From IMG/VR virus record IMGVR_UViG_3300017970_000189: a DNA stretch of 64,000 bases, one strand, 5' to 3'. The DNA comes from an uncultured virus (IMG/VR IMGVR_UViG_3300017970_000189). Lineage: Duplodnaviria > Heunggongvirae > Uroviricota > Caudoviricetes. The number at the start of each line of letters is the position of its first letter. The stretch's first letter is position 1. The notes beneath the pieces were generated by a model, which saw nothing but the letters and a program-made list of their open reading frames with translations, had not been told where the DNA came from and ran no database searches. Positions 2,578 through 53,100 of the stretch are shown here, piece after piece. A program made the translations under genes and the position numbers.

Positions 2578-3297
2578 CTACTCCGGTATCTCCACGGTCG
2601 GAAGTTTTCCTTGGATCCTCGAGAGAACCTGGAGGAACATCCTCCCTTCCCGAATCATGTGAAGCGCCAGGACCGGGTGGATGATGGACTCCACCTGGGC
2701 CGTCCCGATCCCATTCTGGGTGAAATATTTGTCGAGCAGGATCCCCGCCTTCTGCGAGAGCACGATGAACCCCTGCTCCATCGATTGGCAGCCCGACTCC
2801 AGGTCCTCCAGTTTTTCTTGAAGGGCTTCCGCCTGCTTGATCAGGAGCTTTTCTTCCGGGTCGAGCAGATGCGCCGTAAACGCCGCGTGATCCGCCATGA
2901 ACCCCAGCCACGCGCAGAGCTCGTCCGACGCCTGAGCTAAGCCCGCCTTCTTGGACACCACCGTGAGACTCGTCATGAAATAATCGAGTTCGTCCCGCCA
3001 GTGCCTGACCATTGAGGCGAAGAGCCACCCCAGCCATTCCCCGGCCTGGAGGCGACCATAAACCCGGGTCTTGAACTGCCGGAGCTGATTGGCGAGGGGC
3101 TTTACCATTTCGACAAGGGATACCTCATCCGAAGGAGAGGCCTGAGCGGGAAGAGAGGTCCTAAACGCTTCCCAGTCGGAATGCAGTTTCTGTGCCTGGT
3201 TTTTCAGATCCTGGGGATCCAGACCGAGTTGCAAAAACAGGCAGTGTTCACTCATCTGGCGCGACCAGAATCGGACGAGTTCGAGCGTATTGGCCAT
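2578..3297 (-). CDS. DUF2935-like protein (duplicated helical His/Glu repeat)
   Basis: FWxxQMxEH...ELDYF and WLxFMADHA...HxxRE repeats; start reassigned to ATG 3297. Confidence 0.7.
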   Translation of the reverse strand: MANTLELVRFWSRQMSEHCLFLQLGLDPQDLKNQAQKLHSDWEAFRTSLPAQASPSDEVSLVEMVKPLANQLRQFKTRVYGRLQAGEWLGWLFASMVRHWRDELDYFMTSLTVVSKKAGLAQASDELCAWLGFMADHAAFTAHLLDPEEKLLIKQAEALQEKLEDLESGCQSMEQGFIVLSQKAGILLDKYFTQNGIGTAQVESIIHPVLALHMIREGRMFLQVLSRIQGKLPTVEIPE

Positions 3298-3737
3298 CAG
3301 AAGCTCCGCGCTCCAGGAACAGCCGTTACGCCAGGGGCCGCAGGAACCGGTTCCGGAACCGTTACCGGTGCTTTGGGACAGCCTTCCGGAGGATGGACGC
3401 CGGCGATCCGCTTTCCAACGCTGATCAAGTCGGCTATTCCGGCCAGACCGTTTCCTACGGCCAGAATCCAGGCGATCCCCGAAACCCACCGGTTCTTTTC
3501 CTTCAGGCCCACGGAAATGCCCAGCCATGTGGTGCCGCCGTGGAACAGCAGACGAAGGACATCCCCCATATAGGATGGCCAACCCATGATCTGATCAAAA
3601 GTCTGCCCAATCCGAGGATGGCCGCCGCTCAAATCAGGATGTGAAATATCGGTCAATAGCGAAATGCTTCGAACTGCCGACACCAGGGGCACCTGCCCCA
3701 GGAAAGGTTTCTGGACTGGTGGTCGATAATTTAACAC
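3297..3737 (-). CDS. membrane protein, WxGxxxGL(K/R)EK hairpin family (FLGQ, RIGQ)
   Basis: TWLGISVGLKEKNRWVSGIAW. Confidence 0.7.
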   Translation of the reverse strand: MLNYRPPVQKPFLGQVPLVSAVRSISLLTDISHPDLSGGHPRIGQTFDQIMGWPSYMGDVLRLLFHGGTTWLGISVGLKEKNRWVSGIAWILAVGNGLAGIADLISVGKRIAGVHPPEGCPKAPVTVPEPVPAAPGVTAVPGARSF

Positions 3738-3889
3738 GGGATTCTGATATTCACAGGATCATCGCACTGAGCCCCGTCAGACGACGAAAGCCCCGTGCCC
3801 AAGGATTTCCGACGGGATACATAGCCCCTCCCAAAAAGATGAGCCAAACTAGGACGGCAGGAGGGGGAGAAGATAGAGCCGTCTGACTA

Positions 3890-4086
3890 TAAAATTTACC
3901 CGAGAACCCTCCAAAATACAAGCCTTAGAACTTATGCTCCTGACTACCTCAGAAGACTTGTTGAAAAAGGAAATTTTTATTATAGTCTATAAAAGTAAAC
4001 GCCGGGTATTCTCGAGATACCCGTAAATGTACATCCAAGCGCGTTTTTCTTTGAAAATCAGGCCTCTAAAAGGCTTTATTCGAATG
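3890..4086 (+). promoter_or_regulatory. AT-rich CRISPR leader with candidate sigma70 promoter
   Basis: AT-rich stretch before repeat 1; TTGTTG(3958)-17 nt-TATAGT(3981). Confidence 0.55.
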
Positions 4087-5422
4087 GTCTTTTCTCCATC
4101 TATGGAGATCACCCGGCCGGCTGATAATTCAGTACGCAACCTCCAGTCTTCTCCACACCCACGGAGATCGCCCCCGGATCCGCAGCCATCCGAACCTCGA
4201 GCGATGGTCTTCTCCCTACGCCCGGAGATCAACCTCCCTTGAACCCAACGATCGCGGGCATGTACTGGTCTTCTCCATATGCACGGAGATCGCCCCGTCG
4301 TCCGACTTCAATGGATAGCGTGCCGGAGTTTTCTCCATACGCACGGAGATCGCCCGCAGGTTAGCCTAACACCCTACGAGACTCCCACACCTTCTTCCTC
4401 GCACGAAGATCACCCCAGCACTAGCGTGGTCATACACCACCCCTTCGGCCTTCTCCTCACACACAGAGATCCTTCGGTCGCGAGCAGCTCCTGCATGCAC
4501 TCCGCCTCGTTTTCTCCACTCGCGCGGAGATCAACCTCCCTCGAGCTTTTCCGCTTCCATGCTGGTGAGGTCTTCTCCATGCGCACGGAGATCACCCCTT
4601 CGAACCTTGGCCTCCAACCTCTACGACTTTGTCTTCTCACTTAGAGATTGTCCACACCGAGGCGTAACCGGACGGTCTCTCCAGTCGCCTTCTCCAAATA
4701 CATGGAGATCATTCTGCGGCTGAATAGCCGATGTACCCCTTAAAATCACCTTCTCCCACAGCCGGAGATCGCCCCCATCGCCCCTGGGAAGCCTTCTCCT
4801 CTCCTTCTATCTTCTCCCTCACGCGGAGATCACCCAACCGCCAGCACCGGCCGCGATCAGCCACGCGAGTCTTTTCCCACGCGCGGAGATCACCCTGGAA
4901 CGGCTTGGGCGGAATGGCTCTAAGTTTTCTCCAGACTCGCGGAGATCACCCGGTGTTTCGCTTTACGAAGTCCGGATTCAGGACATCTTCTCCACCTGAA
5001 GATTCCCCTGGCGGACCGCTTAATGTTAGTGAACCCCTCGACTCTTCTCTCCGCATCTCCGGAGATCCCCCCGCCTCCTACGCCTTGACGCTGATCAGCG
5101 GATTTTTTCTCTCGAAGCAGAGATTATCCAGGCGTCGGCAATAGACCGGCCGTTTACCGGAAGCTTTCTCCCGTACGGAGATGACCCCTCGTGATTCCTT
5201 GGCCTACCGCTCGCCTAGTTTCCTTCTCTGGTTACAGAGATTTTCCTGCGCGAATCGACCGCGTGGACCTTGGAAACCTCGTTTCTCCAGACGTGGAGAT
5301 CCTCCTGCGGACATCCTGACGTTATTCGGAGTGCGTGTGTTTATTCTCTACTCGAGAGATAATCCTTGGCCCATACAGGCGAGCGGCGCAGACGTGATCC
5401 CTTCTCCTTACGGAGATTTATC
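4087..5422 (+). CRISPR. orphan type I-E-like CRISPR array, 23 degenerate repeats and 22 spacers
   Basis: consensus about GTCTTCTCCACNCGCACGGAGATCACCC; period about 55-61 nt; starts near 4087,4146,4207,4268,4328,4389,4448,4509,4570,4631,4687,4748,4809,4869,4924,4985,5043,5103,5163,5221,5280,5341,5399; spacers unique, mostly 32-33 nt. Confidence 0.88.
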
Positions 5423-5723
5423 TCAGCGAGACGATCCCGACGATCGCCGCGACAAGAACTCCCCCGGCAATATATACCCCGAGCGGGATGTTCTTGGTCG
5501 ATGGCGTGGGCGCCGGCGCGGGAGCCGGTTGAGGCGTCTGGGCCTGGCTGAGCACTGGAGGCTGCTGCCACGCAGGCGCCGGAAGCGCCCGATTCAGCGA
5601 TGCAAACACCTTGTGAGGGTTGTTCCACAGTCCCGAAGTGGCGGCCTGCATCGCTCCCCCATAAGAATCCGAAGAAGGGGGGAGGAGATTCAGGATTCTA
5701 TACGCCCATGAATTATTTAGCAA
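5418..5723 (-). CDS. small TM-anchored Pro-rich protein (VLSQ motif)
   Basis: PAPAP linker and C-terminal TM. Confidence 0.7.
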   Translation of the reverse strand: MLNNSWAYRILNLLPPSSDSYGGAMQAATSGLWNNPHKVFASLNRALPAPAWQQPPVLSQAQTPQPAPAPAPTPSTKNIPLGVYIAGGVLVAAIVGIVSLR

Positions 5724-5733
5724 GACCTATTTT

Positions 5734-6624
5734 TCACGGAAACTTCGGCCAGACCACGTCCTTCAGCACCGGCCGATGCTCCCGCTCGACATTTCCCATC
5801 AGCACGTCGAACACAAACCCCACGTCCAAAGCCGTCTTCCCGCTCTGCCAGATCCGCCATGCCAGGGGTTTTGCGGTACCTCCACAAGCCAGGAGCGCCA
5901 CGTCGAAATCCATCCTGGCCGCCTCCCCAAGCACCCGCTCGTAATCCGCCCAGGCTCCCCCCGCCTCCCGCGGCTTCGTCTGAATCACCCCGGCAACCTT
6001 CAATTGGTCAATCGGCCCGAGGAACGCATAAGCATCCAAGAATGCTTTTACCTTAAAACACTCGGAAAGCCTCCAGGCGGTCGAACCGATGAAGATCACC
6101 TTCTTGCCCGCCAGATACCGAAACAGCGTCCCGTCGACGAGAAGCTGATAGGGAAGATGCGCCTCCACCCCGGTCGGCGCCGGAAGAGGCATCCCGAGCA
6201 TATAAAGCAGCATCGCCGTCTTCACCGTGATCGGCGCCCAGTTCTGCTGAAGCCCCAGGAGCTCCGCTTCCCGCACCGCACTCACGAAATCCTTCCGGAG
6301 CGGAAACGCCTTTCTGGAGAATCCGGCGAAGCCGAACTGGGTATTCAGATCATGATGGATCGGGACGAATCCGGCGCCCAAGAGCCCGATCTCGCAGTCC
6401 CCGACCCTAATCAGGCAAAACGGATCCTTGCACTCGAGGAATCTTCGCTCTCCGGCATGAAGCTGGGGTGCCATCCCGAACCCATGGCCGTAAGGGATGA
6501 GCCGCGTTCCCGCCCCCGCCGACTCCGCGAAGAGCTCGTCGATCGGGCGCCGCTCGTCCGACGAAAGCTCATCCGCCCACGCCCGCAGCCCCAGGAATTG
6601 CTCTACCGCCATCCCTTTCCCCAC
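5734..6624 (-). CDS. GT-D fold (DUF1792-like) glycosyltransferase domain protein
   Basis: IRVGDCE; DFDVALLACGGTAKPLA...GKTALDVG. Confidence 0.65.
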   Translation of the reverse strand: MGKGMAVEQFLGLRAWADELSSDERRPIDELFAESAGAGTRLIPYGHGFGMAPQLHAGERRFLECKDPFCLIRVGDCEIGLLGAGFVPIHHDLNTQFGFAGFSRKAFPLRKDFVSAVREAELLGLQQNWAPITVKTAMLLYMLGMPLPAPTGVEAHLPYQLLVDGTLFRYLAGKKVIFIGSTAWRLSECFKVKAFLDAYAFLGPIDQLKVAGVIQTKPREAGGAWADYERVLGEAARMDFDVALLACGGTAKPLAWRIWQSGKTALDVGFVFDVLMGNVEREHRPVLKDVVWPKFP

Positions 6625-6822: not shown

Positions 6823-7916
6823 TACTTCGCCGCCTTCCTCTCCTCGAGCGCCGCTTGGACCCGGGCGTTTTCCCCATTACAGAAATCCAGGACATCCTGG
6901 AGCGCCGAACCGTCCCACACTCCCTGCACGTTCAAATGGAAATCCGGCTTCGCCGTGGCCGGGATCGCGAAGGCCTTCTCGATGGTCTCGATTGCATCGT
7001 CGAGGCGCATGACCTTGATGAGCCCGATCGCCTTGTAATAGAGGATTTCCCGCCGCTCCGGAGCTTCCTGGAGTGCATCGTCGAAGAACTGCTCGGCCAT
7101 GTCGTACCGGCCCATGCAAGAATGGCAGCGCCCGAGCAGCATCAAGGTCTCGCTTCGGTCCATCCGATCCGTCTTCACCATGTCGTGATAAAACTTAAGA
7201 TATTTCGCCGCGCTCTGCCAATCCTCCCGGGCAAAGAACTCCATCCCAAGCTGGCGGCTGTTCCGGACGTATTCCGGACTTTCCTTGACCGAGATCTGGA
7301 GCAAATCCAGGTTCTGCTGGTGCCGGGCCGCCTTGTTGGCCGACGGAATATGCTCGATCACCGCCTCCGGCAGATTCTCCACCGTCATCGGCTCCCGCTT
7401 GCACATCAGCACCTCGTGGACCCGGTATTTCCATTCCCAGCGCCCATGCCGGAACACCTTCAGCTTCATCAGGCTTCCCGGATTCTGCTTATTCTCGTCG
7501 TAAAGCGTGAAGGTCACGTTGAATCCCACCGCCTTGGGCTTCTGCCAGAATGCCTTCCGGATAATGTCGATCGACCCTTCCTTCACCACCTCGTCCGCAT
7601 CGATCGTGAGCGCCCAGTCCTGCTTCACGAACTGAAGCGCAAAATTCCGGGCCACCGAGAAATCAAACGGCTCGATCTTGGGCGCGATCTTGACGTCCGA
7701 CGTGAAGCTCTTCGCGATCTCCACCGTCCGATCCGTCGAGCCTGTGTCCGCAACCACGATCTGATCGACCCTCTCCAGGCTCTTGAGACACCGCTCGAGC
7801 ACCTCCTCCTCGTTCTTCACAATCAAGACCGCCGCGATGCCGTTCCTGCTGCCCTTCGCCGGCTTGTCCGGCTTCTGCCGATGCCAGGAATTCACCCTCG
7901 GCTTGTAGCTGCTCAC
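6822..7916 (-). CDS. GT2 glycosyltransferase with C-terminal TPRs (SunS-like)
   Basis: IVKNEE, DTGSTD, DFSVARN, IDADE, RVHE motifs followed by TPR helices. Confidence 0.88.
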
Positions 7917-8779
7917 GCCAGGATCTCCTTGAGGTAGGTGCCGTACGAATTCCCCGCGTACTTATTCGCCAGCTCGGCAAGCTGTTCCGCCTTGATGAAA
8001 CCCTTCCGATAGGCCACTTCCTCCGGACAGCCAACCATCATGCCCTGGCGATCCTGGATCGCCTGGACAAAATTGCTCGCCTGAAGAAGGCTTTCATGCG
8101 TCCCGGCATCCAACCATGCCGTTCCACGGCCGAGGCGATGGACCTTGAGAAGCTTCTCTTCCAGGTAAATCCGGTTGATATCCGTGATCTCGAGCTCTCC
8201 CCGAAGCGACGGCTTAAGATCGGCCGCCATGCCTACGACTCGATTGTCATAGAAATAAAGCCCAGGAACCGCCAGCTTTGACCTCGGATTTTTTGGCTTT
8301 TCCTCGATCGCGATGGGCAATCCATAGGGATCCAGCTCCACAACTCCGTACCTTTCCGGATCCTTCACCTCATATCCGAAGATGACCGCCCCCATCTCGG
8401 CTTTCTGAACCGCACCTTCGATCTGCTTGGTCAAGTCGTGGCCGAAGAACAAATTATCGCCGAGACATAAAGAGACCGGATCTCTTCCAATGAACTTCTT
8501 CCCGACGATGAAGGCGTCGGCCAGTCCTCGCGGCGCAGTCTGCTCCGCATAGGTGAAGTTCATCCCCCATTGCCTGCCATCTCCAAGAAGTCTCCGATAC
8601 TGAGGAAGATCCTCGGTGCTCGAGATGACCAGGATCTCTCGAATCCCACCCAACATGAGCGTGGTAATCGGGTAATAGATCATGGGCTTGTCGTAAATCG
8701 GCAGGGCCTGTTTCGAAATGGCCAGGGTCACCGGATAAAGCCGCGTCCCCTTCCCTCCGGCCAAAATAATCCCCTTCAT
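7913..8779 (-). CDS. rfbA: glucose-1-phosphate thymidylyltransferase
   Basis: [39 protein letters not shown]. Confidence 0.97.
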
Positions 8780-35224: not shown

Positions 35225-35830
35225 TTATCTTGCAGGAGCTTCGCCCGGTGCCGGCGAGATTTCAACCATCTCCATCGCCTCCCGGCCGCGCTGTCCAACA
35301 ACGTTCCAGTTGACGTTCCCAAAGAATGCACCGATATAGCCAGATTTGTCGAGGCCATATTCGCGCATATAGGCATGCTCGTAGCAATCCAGCACCAAGA
35401 GCGGCCAGGATCCCGCTACGTATCCCTGTCCGTGCTCCTTCATCGTGAACAGGAATTCCTGCCCTCTCCAAAGGTCCATCGCGAGCACCACCCAGCCGGT
35501 CGATCCGAGCGCCAGCACCGACATCCGATCGAGCAGCTCATCCGTATCCTTCTCAAACAGATGCTCGGGATTTCCCATCCCTCCCTTGGTCAATTGCTCG
35601 AAGTAGAGCTCGTGAAGATAGATCGCGTTCCTCAAGAACCCCTCTTCCGACATCAACCGCTGGTACTCGAAGCGATCGACTTTCTTCGGAAGATCTGCGA
35701 TCTTCTTCTCGATCGCGTTGAAGCGATCAAGATATCCCAGGTAAAGTTTGAAGTGATCCGACAAGAGCTTCTTCGAAAGCCCCGGAAGCTCTTTGTACTC
35801 AAGATCGATCGGTTTCCAGACTTCGCTCAC
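35225..35830 (-). CDS. Fe/Mn superoxide dismutase-family protein
   Basis: HFKLYLGY, LHELYF, PLLVLDCYEHAY, NVNW. Confidence 0.85.
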   Translation of the reverse strand: MSEVWKPIDLEYKELPGLSKKLLSDHFKLYLGYLDRFNAIEKKIADLPKKVDRFEYQRLMSEEGFLRNAIYLHELYFEQLTKGGMGNPEHLFEKDTDELLDRMSVLALGSTGWVVLAMDLWRGQEFLFTMKEHGQGYVAGSWPLLVLDCYEHAYMREYGLDKSGYIGAFFGNVNWNVVGQRGREAMEMVEISPAPGEAPAR

Positions 35831-40695: not shown

Positions 40696-42015
40696 CTAGT
40701 CGTTGCCTTTGATACAGGCGACGGGACGGAGACGGTGAGCCACTCTTGCCAGCTTGGCCTGCTCCAAGGTCGCCAGGACCGCATCCAGGCTCTTGTAGCA
40801 GGGATCCGATTCGTCGATCGGGGTATTCCTCGTGTTGATCAGGATGTCGGCTTCGGCCATCTCCCGGTCGATCTTTTCCTGATCGAGCGTCCGAGCGGCC
40901 GCCTTCCGGCCCAGGACCCGGCCCGACCCATGATTCACCGAATAGCACGACCGTTCAGCCTGCGGAAGGGCGTAGAGAATCGCGGATCCCTTCTTCATCG
41001 AGCCAGGGATCAGGATCGGATGGCCATCAGCCTCCCACGGAGTTCCGGTCAGCATCTTGTGGCCGGCCGGGAATGCCCGGGTCGATCCTTTCCGGTGGAC
41101 GAGGAATCCGTCCTCTTCCTGGATCAGGTTGTGCGAGATCTCGTAGAAGATCTTCGCTTCTCCTCCAAAAACGTCCATCAGGGCGTCGCAGACCGCTTGG
41201 CCAACCAGGATCCGGTTGGCGATCGCGAAGTTGGCGGCCTGGTTGTGGAGCGACCAGTAGCGCCGGCCGATCTCCGAATCCCGGTAGAACCAGCCCATCT
41301 CCCGATCCTTCCCCTGAAGGCCCAGTAGGCTCGCTCCTTCCTCGAAGTAGTGGTCGGCGATCCCGTGGCCATAACCCCTGGACCCCGTGTGGATCATGAC
41401 CCAGACCTTCCCGGTCGTGTCTTCCACCTGCATCTCGCAGAAATGGTTTCCCCCTCCGAGCGATCCGAGCTGATTCTTGCCCCTTGCCGCCTTGTCCGGC
41501 AGCTTGATCTCCTGATCGACCGGGATGTACTCCCGTTCCGTATAGCCCGGCAGGCGACCCATCGCCTTGGCGCCAAACTTCACGATCTCGTCGAAGGAGA
41601 CCTTCGGCTTGATCTTGCCACACTCGCCTTTTCCGATCCCGATCAGACCCGTCACCTTGTTAATCCAGGCCCGGCGTTTCACCTTGTCAGCCACCTGGTC
41701 GGCCGTCAAGGTCGTCTCGAGCTGGACCATCCCGCAGCCGATGTCATACCCGGCCGCCGTGGGCAGGATCGTCGTGTCGGTCACGATGACGACACCAATC
41801 GGCACCCCATAGCCCTGGTGCGTGTCGGGCATCACCGCCACTTTGACGACGCCCGGAAAGTTCGCCGCAGCCGCCATCTGCTCCCAGGCCGACTCCTCGC
41901 TCGCCTCGTACAGTTCCTTCGAGAGGAAGACATCGACCGGAACCTTGAGATCCGGTGCCTTCGGAAGGATGTAGTGGCCAGGACCTGAGTATTCGGCGCG
42001 TTTCTTGAATGACAT
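40696..42015 (-). CDS. rtcB: RNA ligase RtcB
   Basis: MPDTHQGYG, GYDIGCG, GGGNHF, HTGSRG, SHN, HRKG, HGSGR; start reassigned to MSFKK. Confidence 0.95.
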   Translation of the reverse strand: MSFKKRAEYSGPGHYILPKAPDLKVPVDVFLSKELYEASEESAWEQMAAAANFPGVVKVAVMPDTHQGYGVPIGVVIVTDTTILPTAAGYDIGCGMVQLETTLTADQVADKVKRRAWINKVTGLIGIGKGECGKIKPKVSFDEIVKFGAKAMGRLPGYTEREYIPVDQEIKLPDKAARGKNQLGSLGGGNHFCEMQVEDTTGKVWVMIHTGSRGYGHGIADHYFEEGASLLGLQGKDREMGWFYRDSEIGRRYWSLHNQAANFAIANRILVGQAVCDALMDVFGGEAKIFYEISHNLIQEEDGFLVHRKGSTRAFPAGHKMLTGTPWEADGHPILIPGSMKKGSAILYALPQAERSCYSVNHGSGRVLGRKAAARTLDQEKIDREMAEADILINTRNTPIDESDPCYKSLDAVLATLEQAKLARVAHRLRPVACIKGND

Positions 42016-42062
42016 GATTTTCTCCCTCGCTCGGCAAGAGTGTACCACGCTTACCTTGAAAC

Positions 42063-42136
42063 TGGCAGCCCGCACCGGACTCGCACCGGTATCTTCGGTT
42101 TGAAGGACCGAGATTCTACTCTTAAACTAGCGGGCC
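42063..42136 (-). tRNA. tRNA-Glu(TTC)
   Basis: loop CC-TTC-AA; T-loop TGCGAGT. Confidence 0.8.
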
Positions 42137-42139
42137 AGA

Positions 42140-42445
42140 TGGACGCGCGCTATAAGCCGGGTCCTGTTCCCATTTTCGGGGCGGAAGTCATCAATCTAGA
42201 CCGTGCCTTGCGACACAGCTCAAGCAGCCTACCCGCACGCGATCACGGTCGAGCCAACCCGCGTGCCTATTTGGCTTTGCTCCAGGTGGGGGTTGCCGCG
42301 TTTCACCCCTATCTCTTTCGAGATAGGACTCGTCTCTGTGGCCCTGTCCATCGGCTTGCGCCGTGCGGCCGTTAGCCGCCACCTTGCTCTATGGAGCCCG
42401 GACTTTCCTCCGACCTTGCGGCCGGCGACTTCCCGCTGCGCATCC
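42140..42445 (-). ncRNA. rnpB: RNase P RNA (bacterial A-type, compact)
   Basis: GAGGAAAGTCCGGGCT ... GGGTGAAACG ... ACAGGACCCGGCTTA; terminal P1 pairing. Confidence 0.93.
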
Positions 42446-52750: not shown

Positions 52751-53100
52751 TGGTGGACCCGCCGGGAGTCGCACCCGGGTCTCAGCCAAGTCGTCAGGGG
52801 CGTCTACGCGCGTAGGCGGCGATTTCTTCTCGGCCTCGGCGCGGGCACCGCCGCCCTCGCTTCGGCCATATTCCGGATTTGATCTCGGCTTCCTTCTCCC
52901 GGACTCTTCAGAATGCCCAGCCGATTATTAACGTCCTTCCATGCCGATCGGCGTAGACACGGCGGACGTCGCGGTCAGGCCGCGAGAGCGAGGCTGCCCT
53001 TGGCAGTTGATTGTTTAGCCGGCTTTTAGCCTGGCCAACCGGCCAACCAGGACGCGCAGCTTGCCTTTCTCCTTAGTTGATCGAAATCTAGTTCGGGCCC
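52751..53100 (-). ncRNA. ssrA: tmRNA, tag peptide (A)AKGSLALAA*
   Basis: GGGCCCG/CGGGUCC-ACCA with G3:U70; AAUCAACU then GCC resume codon; tag ORF 53004-52975. Confidence 0.92.

Follow-up and report, generated by a model that had tools for sequence, protein, structure and literature searches.

CRISPR arrays and cas genes are usually adjacent, and E. coli CRISPR-1 is a canonical type I-E array. The locus studied here, on the DNA of an uncultured virus, is an array of hairpin-bearing repeats with no cas gene at its side and with no two repeats alike, and the question that it raises is whether such a degenerate array is a decaying relic or a set of RNAs that selection still maintains. Throughout the text the window means the whole stretch of 64,000 nucleotides that was analysed, and r1 to r23 are the repeats of its array, counted from the leader.

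Anatomy of the array and of the element around it

A motif regular expression run over the window returned 23 units between 4088 and 5417, and a covariance model (R1), built from units with 8-nt loops of three arrays, retrieved 22 of the 23 on the + strand at E <= 10, missing only r20; the 23 hairpin repeats that an earlier note on this DNA had counted in an orphan array were confirmed. Over the 64 kb the model found no convincing units outside the array. The main features are listed below, the coordinates of the repeats running from 4 nt of flank through position -1 of the handle.

4089-5423, + strand: CRISPR array, 23 repeats and 22 spacers
3900-4087, + strand: leader-like region, AT-rich (GC 39%; array and window 57%)
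4051-4080, + strand: weak candidate promoter, read by eye (TTGAAA, 18-nt spacer, TTTATT)
4023-4003 and 4074-4062, - strand: two terminator-like hairpins at the left edge of the array
4089-4115, + strand: r1, nearest the leader, 6-bp stem and 4-nt loop (TCTCCA tcta TGGAGA)
4146-4174, + strand: r2
4207-4235, + strand: r3
4268-4296, + strand: r4
4328-4356, + strand: r5
4389-4416, + strand: r6, stem TCTTC/GAAGA (4393-4409), pair 4 changed from C-G to T-A
4448-4476, + strand: r7
4509-4537, + strand: r8
4570-4598, + strand: r9
about 4626-4654, + strand: r10
4687-4715, + strand: r11
4748-4775, + strand: r12
4809-4836, + strand: r13
4869-4896, + strand: r14
4924-4952, + strand: r15
4982-5009, + strand: r16, 3' arm GAAGA, perfectly paired only with the shifted 5' register TCTTC
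5044-5072, + strand: r17
5104-5130, + strand: r18, stem TCTCT/AGAGA (5108-5123), pair 5 changed from C-G to T-A
5163-5188, + strand: r19
5221-5247, + strand: r20, stem TCTCTG/CAGAGA (5225-5240), 4-nt loop
5280-5306, + strand: r21
5341-5366, + strand: r22, stem TCTCT/AGAGA (5345-5359)
5399-5423, + strand: r23, terminal, hairpin retained (TCTCC ttac GGAGA), handle TC instead of CC

With AGAT as the anchor, the units follow one another at a period of 56-63 nt, in most cases 59-61 nt, which is unbroken both here and in L112, with no dead unit among 23 + 23. A reading as a protein-coding repeat of 20 amino acids was dropped because the period is not consistently divisible by 3. The spacers are mutually dissimilar and measure 32 nt in 12 of 22 cases and 31-33 nt in 16; two of them, sp9 (4599-4625) and sp14 (4897-4923), have 27 nt, where the earlier note had seen a single shorter one. 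Its range of about 4-11 nt for the loops keeps its minimum and loses its maximum, since the value of 11 came from a TCTTC register with one G-U pair and the loops measure 4-8 nt in Watson-Crick register. In the final repeats of both the window array and L112 the hairpin is retained and the CC of the handle is lost, as would be expected if the handle serves only the crRNA downstream of it.

None of the 253 pairs of repeats is identical, the repeats with 8-nt loops differ on average at about 9 of 29 positions, and degeneracy increases toward the 3' end of the array. Adjacent repeats are no closer in sequence than those far apart and there are no fresh duplicates at the leader end, which bears out the description of the array as 'frozen'; the companion claim, that resistance to recombination was itself selected, was not supported, because shuffling of the columns did not give a higher mean for the longest exact run shared by two repeats. 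A repeat search on the window returned 14 copies at 69-87% identity. Tandem Repeats Finder did not report the array, which fits the strong divergence of the repeats, and the five weak matches given by Rfam on the array (E <= 10) include no CRISPR family. Local minimum-energy folds contain the core hairpin in 19 of the 23 units and a fold of the whole transcript in only 12 of 23, and each of the two upper pairs of the canonical I-E stem is unpaired in 18 of the 36 units with 8-nt loops.

As the earlier note had stated, the array lies behind an AT-rich leader and opposite to the flanking genes, which are on the - strand. The leader has TTCTTTGAAAA (4047-4057), a weak short motif that resembles both TTCTTTGACAA in the leader of L109, the cas-adjacent array described below, and TTCTTTGACA preceding a mini-array (L117). 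Transcription from the candidate promoter would start just ahead of r1; a consensus promoter scan gave no + strand promoter. The predicted terminator hairpins could halt - strand read-through of the glycosyltransferase operon past the array. By homology with L109, where the array follows the cas operon in the same orientation, and by the location of the conserved AT..CC handle 3' of the hairpin, the + strand is read as the sense strand.

Searches for Cas families found none in 81 ORFs of the window with Pfam and none in 59 with PADLOC, in line with the earlier claim, and 'cas-less' is used here of these 64 kb only. The content of 40 tRNAs, a tmRNA, an RNase P RNA, RtcB, HNH genes and many ORFans suggests a huge phage, and the window is taken to belong to a mobile element. 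Its RtcB shares only 30-33% identity with phage RtcBs, a 542-aa ORFan gave no match in a tblastn search of phages, two ORFans gave no usable match in the ESM Atlas, and the flanking DUF2935 protein had no relatives among viral contigs. Runs X2 and X3 hold a variant strain whose array differs by about 8.5% at the trailer end and has a 7-nt deletion within spacer 20, a divergence that is not below that of the most diverged flanking coding pieces. The contigs of these two runs cover most of 3809-5215 thinly or not at all, which is evidence in neither direction.

Type I-E affiliation and the conserved core of the repeats

Matching of the consensus repeat to I-E loci, as proposed in the earlier note, led to L109, a locus of a Hyphomicrobiaceae MAG with an operon in the order cas3 (PF18019), cas7 (PF09344), cas5 (PF09704), cas6e (PF08798), cas1 and cas2 (PF09707). 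Directly after this operon stand uniform repeats, GGCTTCTCCGCCCACGCGGAGATCGACCC, with a spacing of 61 nt. They belong to the same class as the repeats of the window (TTCTCC..GGAGAT), from whose consensus they differ at non-core positions only, and model R1 scores both sets of repeats. Since the same repeat class is found in this cas-adjacent array, the array of the window is judged to be I-E-like, as had been claimed, and on sequence homology its repeat class is type I-E. It shares with I-E arrays repeats of about 29 nt that alternate with unique spacers of about 32 nt, and a repeat homologous to those adjoining I-E cas genes; its repeats are not identical or nearly so.

The same core positions are kept in two independent cas-less arrays on metagenome contigs, L112 and L114. 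The L112 contig (9.2 kb) has no Cas family in 12 ORFs searched with Pfam or in 7 with PADLOC, its flanks have no homology with the window, and its unit 1 has a 4-nt loop, as does r1. Orthology of the two arrays, suggested by their equal number of 23 units, was rejected: spacer pairs of the same rank score no better than background, and the equal number is therefore taken as a coincidence. A duplicated spacer in L114 was considered as a rate clock and dropped, given that the duplicated block may stop at the stems and exclude the loops. Among viral contigs a single-repeat pattern gave 107 chance singletons, with no array among the 80 loci listed, a relaxed pattern gave 10 loci without arrays, four of them 54-nt coding tandem repeats, and a two-repeat pattern gave 0 matches.

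About 14 positions of the repeat are kept, namely T-TCTCC, GGAGA-T and the CC at handle positions -3 and -2, with near-randomness outside this core. Conservation of T(-1), TCTCC, GGAGA, T and CC is 78-100% in the window, L112 and L114, as compared with 35-78% for the outer 5' flank, the loop and positions -6, -4 and -1 of the handle, with the spacer columns providing a baseline of 28-52% and, in a few columns, up to 0.70. The T-1 and handle positions -3 and -2, which were never used to find or align the units, are 87-100% kept in the three independent arrays. When the comparison was confined to non-anchoring columns, changed cells amounted to 5 of 69 in the core versus 105 of 230 outside it for the window (Fisher 6e-10), 7 of 69 versus 79 of 230 for L112 (6e-5) and 2 of 57 versus 76 of 190 for L114 (1e-8).

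The pairing of the stem was analysed in 325 stem-pair cells of the three arrays, with the register picked without use of pairing, as it was for r6. Only 23 cells depart from the consensus and pairing is retained in 18 of them, by 5 double changes to another Watson-Crick pair and 13 single changes to G-U; the remaining departures are 3 single and 2 double breaks. The ratio of 13 to 3 among the single changes has a binomial p of 1e-4 for an expectation of 1/3 and of 0.011 for 1/2. For pair 5 of the window stem the Fisher test gave 0.0056, r18, r20 and r22 carrying the same double change, which may stem from one event. The four compensatory stems of the earlier note (r6, r18, r20, r22) are all present, although some 'compensation' comes easily where one arm is a run of pyrimidines and the other a run of purines; perfect pairing of r16 requires a shift of register, and in the sequence-based register it has one C-A mismatch. 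As to the covariation check that the note had proposed, a count on the 36 units with 8-nt loops found none above shuffles, a null result explained by the selection of this subset for intact lower stems.

Per nucleotide, spacers change in length about four times less than loops in all three arrays. The constant distance from stem to stem, to which importance had been attached, loses weight as evidence because loop-only deletions give the same outcome; what stands is that spacer length is steadier than loop length. In a Salmonella I-E system a loop smaller by 1 nt has been reported to impair processing. The kept positions of the handle, -7, -3 and -2 (and also -5 in L112 and L114), coincide with the positions -7, -5, -3 and -2 at which Cas5 and Cas7.6 of E. 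coli Cascade make base-specific contacts (PMC4288178, section 15), a coincidence that would fit I-E Cas proteins being provided in trans. The divergence of the repeats is not neutral decay, a claim of the earlier note that is supported by the different rates of change inside and outside the core and by the pair-preserving changes of the stem.

Proposed function, spacer targets and alternatives

Rather than a dead relic, the array probably encodes functional RNAs that hijack Cas proteins as guides or decoys. We consider with moderate confidence that it is a Cas-less phage array derived from type I-E, the 23 units of which are kept by selection and are processed and loaded by I-E proteins. It would no longer acquire spacers, and its 23 repeats would have drifted almost to randomness wherever I-E proteins do not read them. 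In each unit selection would act on the five lower base pairs of the stem (TCTCC/GGAGA), on the flanking T and the cleavage site of Cas6e (between G and A-T), on the 5'-handle bases -7, -3 and -2 read by Cas5 and Cas7, and on a spacer of roughly 32 nt. A transcript of the + strand would arise from the AT-rich leader, an I-E Cas6e would cleave this transcript where each hairpin begins to pair, and Cascade would take up the resulting RNAs of roughly 60 nt, the Cas proteins being provided by the infected cell or by regions of the element that lie beyond the window. As all 23 units are kept, each RNA probably matters individually, which would make these RNAs guides or regulatory guides, with targets absent from the databases, more than bulk filler. 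Several observations weigh against this proposal: the spacer searches described below gave no significant match, the upper stem is often unpaired and the loops vary from 4 to 8 nt, which is set beside the impaired processing reported from Salmonella, a fold of the whole transcript shows only 12 of 23 hairpins, the consensus scan gave no + strand promoter, and the trailer end of the variant strain is no less diverged than the most diverged flanking coding pieces.

Comparison of the spacers with viruses, candidate hosts and their own genome, as the earlier note had advised, gave no significant match. The best values were 13 nt within the window itself, E 0.5 against INPHARED phages and E 0.1 against PLSDB plasmids, and matches were at chance level in three candidate genomes and, with 2 candidates scored per genome, in 401 genomes of the G001 class and 401 of the G002 phylum; these collections are small for a peat community. 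In the cas promoter region of L109 (3251-3700), the one candidate host locus compared, the longest 5' seed was 7 nt for window spacers and 8 nt overall, from a spacer of L114, where a Cracr spacer (see below) is expected to match a host cas or creT promoter over 9 or more PAM-proximal bases. A match to L129 (81% over 55 nt, E 2e-5 per genome) was set aside as compositional, since it falls within coding sequence and takes in the repeat as well. Two further matches are leads only:

4897-4923, + strand: spacer 14, of 27 nt, the initial 22 nt being identical to an unannotated 344-aa ORF
5367-5398, + strand: spacer 22, with 25 bases (5377-5401) identical to obgE of a Sphingomonas parapaucimobilis replicon

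The match of spacer 14 occurs in two related genomes of the G002 phylum, with an E of 6.6e-4 per genome that amounts to chance level over 401. The 25 bases shared with obgE comprise the last 22 nt of spacer 22 and 3 nt of the flank of r23, an additional TGGCC matching upstream past a 4-nt gap, with E 0.1 against 7.3 Gb.

The same data were weighed against other explanations. If a captured host I-E array were merely decaying, its apparent conservation would have to reflect the way in which the units were detected, or else mutation that is uneven, for example through error-prone copying at hairpin tips; the lack of cas genes, targets and identical repeats, the degeneracy growing toward the 3' end and the loop length, most changeable as such errors would leave it, all agree with this. 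However, in three arrays T-1 and handle -3/-2 stay at 87-100% beside columns that are near random, variation reaches handle -6, -4 and -1 and the 5' flank and not the loops alone, the changes of the stem are skewed to those that preserve pairing (18 of 23), and dead units number 0 in 23 + 23, so that this already disfavoured reading is very improbable. It is hardly credible that the array has no CRISPR function and serves as an iteron replication origin, as protein-binding sites or as transcription attenuators: the stem, being its own reverse complement, does form also in the - strand RNA of the flanking operon, and two units score as terminator-like, but the cas-adjacent I-E array of L109 has a matching repeat, period and asymmetric AT..CC handle, and the asymmetry of conservation follows the sense orientation of I-E repeats. 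That the array is not an orphan, the element encoding I-E-like or other Cas proteins beyond the 64 kb as a self-contained phage system, is improbable, as arrays usually adjoin cas genes and no Cas family was found in the ORFs of the window or of L112 (counts above). In its favour, huge phages often carry CRISPR systems without adaptation genes (PMC7162821), and the same genome may hold a second array, since in the likely source run two matching repeats lie 867 nt apart on a contig of 14,996 nt that is sequenced to equal depth (45.3 vs 45.8).

A further alternative concerns the role of the spacers. The RNAs may be processed and loaded with their spacers as filler, soaking up Cas6e and Cascade or retuning cas expression; such a competitor or decoy array, which is possible if rather doubtful, would blunt the I-E immunity of the host and would be related, in extended form, to Racr and Cracr RNAs. 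Phages are known to carry arrays of crRNA-like RNAs in which the repeats are degenerate, and I-E Racrs inhibit an I-E system (PMC10651486). A decoy accounts for spacers without targets, for the tolerance of the variant strain to the 7-nt deletion in spacer 20, and for a great age of the array without stale guides, a point that counts against guides because the near-saturated divergence at non-core positions implies a long time, over which unselected spacers would lose their targets. Nevertheless, the loss of one of 23 filler units would be cheap and yet none is dead in the window or L112, and spacer length is better kept than loop length. The Racrs described are solitary repeats, and the Cracr arrays described have 2-3 spacers, of 21-24 nt in the one dissected, which match cas promoters, whereas the spacers of the window mostly have 32 nt and show no match to the single candidate cas promoter (L109). 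A more specific form of the guide interpretation, unlikely as it stands, is that a huge phage carries an acquisition-free library of 22 individually selected I-E guides, which the Cascade of the infected cell would use to shut down or destroy conserved genes of hosts or rivals, in a design that recurs in the peat elements L112 and L114 and perhaps in a second array on this genome. Its repeats would then retain little more than the code that Cas6e and Cascade recognise, of about 14 bases, and the array would be a natural 'non-repetitive' one that resists repeat-mediated loss and reports which repeat positions are needed.

Apart from this specific form, the pattern of conservation implies sustained selection on crRNA-like RNAs without spacer uptake, and it can be read as a natural mutagenesis map of the requirements of I-E Cas6e and Cascade, comprising the lower stem, the cleavage site and handle -7/-3/-2. 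Moreover, the array provides a concrete system for testing large phage guide or decoy libraries on host Cascade and, as a natural model for recombination-proof multiplex arrays, a template for engineering.

Comparison with known systems

With a canonical I-E array, as represented by L109, the array of the window has in common the repeat of 28-29 nt with a 32-nt spacer, the T-TCTCC..GGAGA-T..CC skeleton, the orientation and the AT-rich leader. It differs in the absence of adjacent cas genes, in that every repeat is different and in the hairpin itself, since the 7-bp stem and 4-nt loop of the canonical repeat are replaced by loops of 4-8 nt and the upper stem is lost in about half of the units.

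Among RNAs carried by mobile elements, a Racr is likewise a mimic of a CRISPR repeat that could bind proteins of the Cas6 or Cas7 type, I-E examples having been tested, but it is described as a single repeat without spacers (PMC10651486) and the window has 23 tandem units that keep the geometry of the spacers. The arrays of crRNA-like anti-CRISPR RNAs, or Cracr arrays (Liu et al., bioRxiv 10.1101/2024.10.29.618823), resemble it more closely: they are located on phages or plasmids, lack cas genes, have degenerate repeat-like sequences, are multiplexed, also for type I-E, and rely on the Cas6e and Cascade of the host, as is proposed for the window. The window array has their degenerate repeats and their position away from cas genes, on what is probably a mobile element; it does not have their few, short spacers. 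According to the same source these number 2-3, measure 21-24 nt in the array dissected for type I-E and correspond to promoters of cas or creT, against 22 spacers of mostly 32 nt in the window that do not match the one candidate promoter.

Viral mini-arrays (PMC11656645) are also cas-less and use host Cas proteins, as the window array is proposed to do, and are often directed at related viruses; they are described as having 1-2 spacers between repeats that do not differ from the host's own, in contrast to 22 spacers and no two repeats alike. The arrays of huge phages (PMC7162821) belong, as this one does, to large phage-like elements with many tRNAs and a tmRNA, and for those without adaptation or interference genes the use of host Cas proteins has been proposed, some spacers matching host genes. 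They have a median of 6 repeats against 23 in the window, and heterogeneity of the repeats around a conserved core was not found described in the accessible part of that report. Cas-less phage arrays are known either as one to three units (mini-arrays, Cracr) or as ordinary uniform arrays, and the window contributes a 22-spacer array kept until its repeats were randomised save for about 14 positions, the same ones in three independent arrays.

Layout of the array and its relatives

Direct reading of window 3700-5900 together with a motif regular expression placed the 23 units at 4088-5417. In each unit a loop separates a pyrimidine arm (consensus TCTCC) from a purine arm (GGAGA), which is followed by a T; anchored on AGAT, the units are spaced by 56-63 nt, mostly 59-61 nt. 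The period is unbroken throughout and the core is lost in none of the units. Tandem Repeats Finder reported nothing at the array and a general repeat search collected at best 14 copies with 69-87% identity, so the repeats have diverged beyond the reach of ordinary repeat finders. A covariance model (A2, R1) built on 36 units with an 8-nt loop, taken from this array and the L112 and L114 arrays described below, recovered 22 of the 23 units on the + strand (r20 was missed), and elsewhere in the 64-kb window gave only noise (best E 0.064). An earlier note had proposed an AT-rich leader and the absence of cas genes from the window. Both hold: the GC content of 3900-4087 is 39%, versus 57% for the array and for the window, and no Cas family was found in 81 window ORFs with Pfam or in 59 with PADLOC. 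Immediately past the array comes a small proline-rich ORF (5421-5723, - strand) whose C-terminal tail is hydrophobic; it has a promoter-like site at 5723-5695, and a family match for it was not found.

Viral contigs, species-representative genomes and metagenome contigs were scanned with a two-repeat pattern, which had no match in the viral contigs and retrieved three loci in the genomes and seven in the metagenome contigs. The only array among the genome loci belongs to a Hyphomicrobiaceae MAG (L109), whose gene order is cas3, two unassigned ORFs at the cse1/cse2 positions, cas7, cas5, cas6e, cas1 and cas2, and leads straight into uniform repeats (GGCTTCTCCGCCCACGCGGAGATCGACCC) spaced 61 nt apart. 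This cas operon adjoining repeats of the same class fixes the family of the window repeats as type I-E, in agreement with the previous assignment, and their sense strand as +. Loci L113 and L116 carry the same uniform repeat as L109, and L111 and L117 represent a single small array with 2-3 repeats; L108 and L110 were ruled out as arrays, being two-copy duplications with identical flanks. Two further arrays lie on metagenome contigs:

L112, 3274-4628, 23 units, cas-less, type I-E-like
L114, 1-1120, - strand, 19 units, cas-less, type I-E-like

The 9.2-kb contig of L112 carries ORFans and a DNA methylase, and shows no Cas match and no homology with the window outside the array, while the 1.1-kb contig of L114 is array throughout. 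Every repeat is different in both, yet the core is the same as in the window array. The spacers of L112 are unrelated to those of the window, hence the arrays are not orthologues; compared by eye, they are also present in the peat run X3. L114 has one spacer in two copies (units 6-7 and units 8-9), separated by five substitutions over 33 nt, every one a transition. The handle next to it and the 5' arm that follows were copied too, yet 9 of 16 positions differ in the loops flanking the copies. A 3' arm and the 5' arm after it seem to be the limits of the duplicated block. A short motif, TTCTTTGA(C/A)A, precedes the first repeat at window 4047-4057, at about 9955-9966 in L109 and at 4799-4808 in L117, and L112 has the version TCATTGACAA at about 3256-3265. 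Common to the window array, the cas-adjacent array of L109 and the mini-array of L117, it could be a leader or promoter element that they share, but is too short for certainty.

Site-specific conservation and stem pairing

Conservation is sharply site-specific and follows the same pattern in the window, L112 and L114 arrays. The T before the stem is conserved at 0.87-0.94, the TCTCC and GGAGA arms at 0.78-1.00, the T after the latter at 1.00, and the CC at handle positions -3 and -2 (numbered 5' of the spacer) at 0.87-1.00. Values of 0.35-0.78 were obtained for the loop, for the outer 5' flank and for handle positions -6, -4 and -1, mostly near the level of the spacer columns (0.28-0.52, a few up to 0.70); position -5 reaches 0.52 in the window, 0.83 in L112 and 0.89 in L114. 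Against circularity, core and non-core changes were compared only at columns never used for finding or registering the units.

Changed cells in core and non-core columns
Window: core 5/69; non-core 105/230; Fisher p 6e-10
L112: core 7/69; non-core 79/230; Fisher p 6e-5
L114: core 2/57; non-core 76/190; Fisher p 1e-8

According to PMC4288178, all eight handle nucleotides are required, Cascade structures place base-specific contacts at -7, -5, -3 and -2, and Cas6e-type enzymes cut at the stem base, that is, the lower stem and the G|A junction. All three arrays keep -7, -3 and -2, and L112 and L114 keep -5 as well, while -6, -4 and -1 are free. The last repeats of the window and L112 keep the hairpin and have lost the handle CC, which fits a handle that matters only with a spacer 3' of it.

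The stems have kept their pairing. When the position of the 5' arm was set only from its sequence, 23 of the 325 stem-pair cells in the three arrays were off consensus. Five are double changes to another Watson-Crick pair, one in L112 (unit 13) and four bearing out the compensatory changes claimed for the window (r6, r18, r20 and r22), of which the last three may come from one ancestral event; two are double breaks. Single changes lead to G-U in 13 cases and break the pair in three (binomial p 1e-4 if one third of changes are expected to preserve pairing, 0.011 if one half), with the caution that pairing comes easily where a pyrimidine run faces a purine run and that r16 pairs only after a shift to the neighbouring TCTTC register. 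At pair 5 of the window, T on the 5' side co-occurs with A on the 3' side (Fisher 0.0056). This conservation does not extend to the upper two pairs of the canonical 7-bp stem, each of which is unpaired in 18 of 36 units. Local folds returned the core hairpin in 19/23 window, 16/23 L112 and 11/18 L114 units, and a fold of the whole window array in 12/23.

Age, spacers and the carrying element

Identical repeat pairs are absent from the window (0/253), L112 (0/253) and L114 (0/171), and differences do not rise with distance, the count being 9.0 positions between window neighbours and 9.5 between distant pairs. Variation at separate columns appears independent; with about 14 columns fixed, nine differences fall on about 15 free columns, which is near saturation. 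Judged from its repeats, the array looks frozen, as had been suggested, and old, while its supposed resistance to recombination is possible but unsupported, the shared runs between repeats giving no sign of being shorter than chance. Window spacers measure 32 nt in 12 of 22 cases and fall outside 31-33 nt in six. In each of the three arrays, loops change in length about four times as much per nucleotide as spacers do, which sustains the former observation that guide length is kept while loops vary; the loops could simply be mutation-prone.

Length change in loops and spacers
Window: loops, 23 nt changed per 184 nt; spacers, 23 per 704
L112: loops, 19 nt changed per 184 nt; spacers, 14 per 704
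L114: loops, 18 nt changed per 152 nt; spacers, 20 per 576

No spacer target was found in the rest of the window (best match 13 nt), phages (best E 0.5), plasmids (best E 0.1), three candidate genomes, 401 genomes of the class of genome G001 and 401 of the phylum of genome G002 (two candidates scored per genome), or the L109 cas promoter region. Three matches at or near chance level serve as leads. The last 22 nt of spacer 22 and 3 nt of the r23 flank form 25 bases identical to Sphingomonas obgE, with five further matching bases across a 4-nt gap, and the first 22 nt of spacer 14 match exactly an unannotated ORF in two related genomes. Spacer 17 (window 5041-5071) has a 19-nt exact match to one IMG/VR virus, represented by two near-identical contigs (L061 3755-3773 and L038 2251-2269); this match contains the palindrome CGCTGATCAGCG, has no similarity outside the core and is probably due to chance.

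The region is present in three peat-metagenome DNA runs, X1 (probably the source), X2 and X3, and no RNA run is among the listed runs containing it. Runs X2 and X3 contain a variant that has 14-20 differences (about 8.5%) in the pieces covering 5222-5462 and lacks 7 nt of spacer 20; divergence in its flanking coding pieces is 0.2-11.5% and falls largely on third codon positions. A 14,996-nt contig of X1 (record 2) has a depth of 45.3, against 45.8 for the window's contig, and has matches to repeats r2 and r3 separated by 867 nt, so that a second array, of about 15 units, may be present in this genome.

The window further encodes:

33093-53100, - strand, tRNA region: 40 tRNA genes (33.1-52.0 kb, all - strand, most anticodon families covered), tmRNA and class A RNase P RNA
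52751-53100, - strand, tmRNA
42137-42445, - strand, class A RNase P RNA
40699-42075, - strand, RtcB, among the tRNA genes
within 33093-53100, - strand, three HNH endonuclease genes and a metallophosphoesterase, among the tRNA genes
35228-35830, - strand, ORF with Fe/Mn superoxide dismutase C-terminal domain, inside the tRNA region
5737-26027, - strand, 20-kb glycan-synthesis cluster: glycosyltransferases (GT2, GT4, GT-D-like), two methyltransferases, dTDP-glucose or GDP-mannose dehydratase and epimerase genes
7916-8779, - strand, RmlA-like nucleotidyltransferase, in the glycan-synthesis cluster

PHROG matches were obtained for 5 of 53 window ORFs, and most ORFs match nothing. We infer that the element is a huge phage or a similar large mobile element, and go no further because the window is without a structural phage gene; PMC7162821 describes huge phages that carry numerous tRNAs, tmRNAs and CRISPR arrays poor in cas genes. 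The RNase P RNA is unusual on a phage-like element, the term 'RNase P' being absent from the main text of that paper, and the glycan-synthesis cluster is large for one.

Possible roles and described relatives

Neutral decay, which the earlier note had also dismissed, is rejected on the contrast between core and non-core changes, the kept pairing and the presence of the core in every unit; what is kept are the RNA features read by Cas6e, Cas5 and Cas7. From the sequence record these features are under selection in each unit, which makes it most likely that the array is transcribed and that I-E proteins provided in trans cut and load the RNA. Either a guide role or a competitor or decoy role would fit these data. 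Guides are favoured by the retention of every single unit and by the conserved spacer length, competitors or decoys by the lack of targets in the databases searched, by the great age of the array and by the spacer deletion that the variant tolerates.

Word searches of main texts in the open-access literature found no published long array whose repeats have diverged to saturation around a conserved core. The closest described relatives are the cas-poor arrays of huge phages (PMC7162821), Cracr arrays, which have 2-3 spacers, of 21-24 nt in the one I-E case dissected (Liu et al., bioRxiv 10.1101/2024.10.29.618823), Racrs, which are solitary repeats (PMC10651486), and viral mini-arrays, which have 1-2 spacers and host-identical repeats (PMC11656645).
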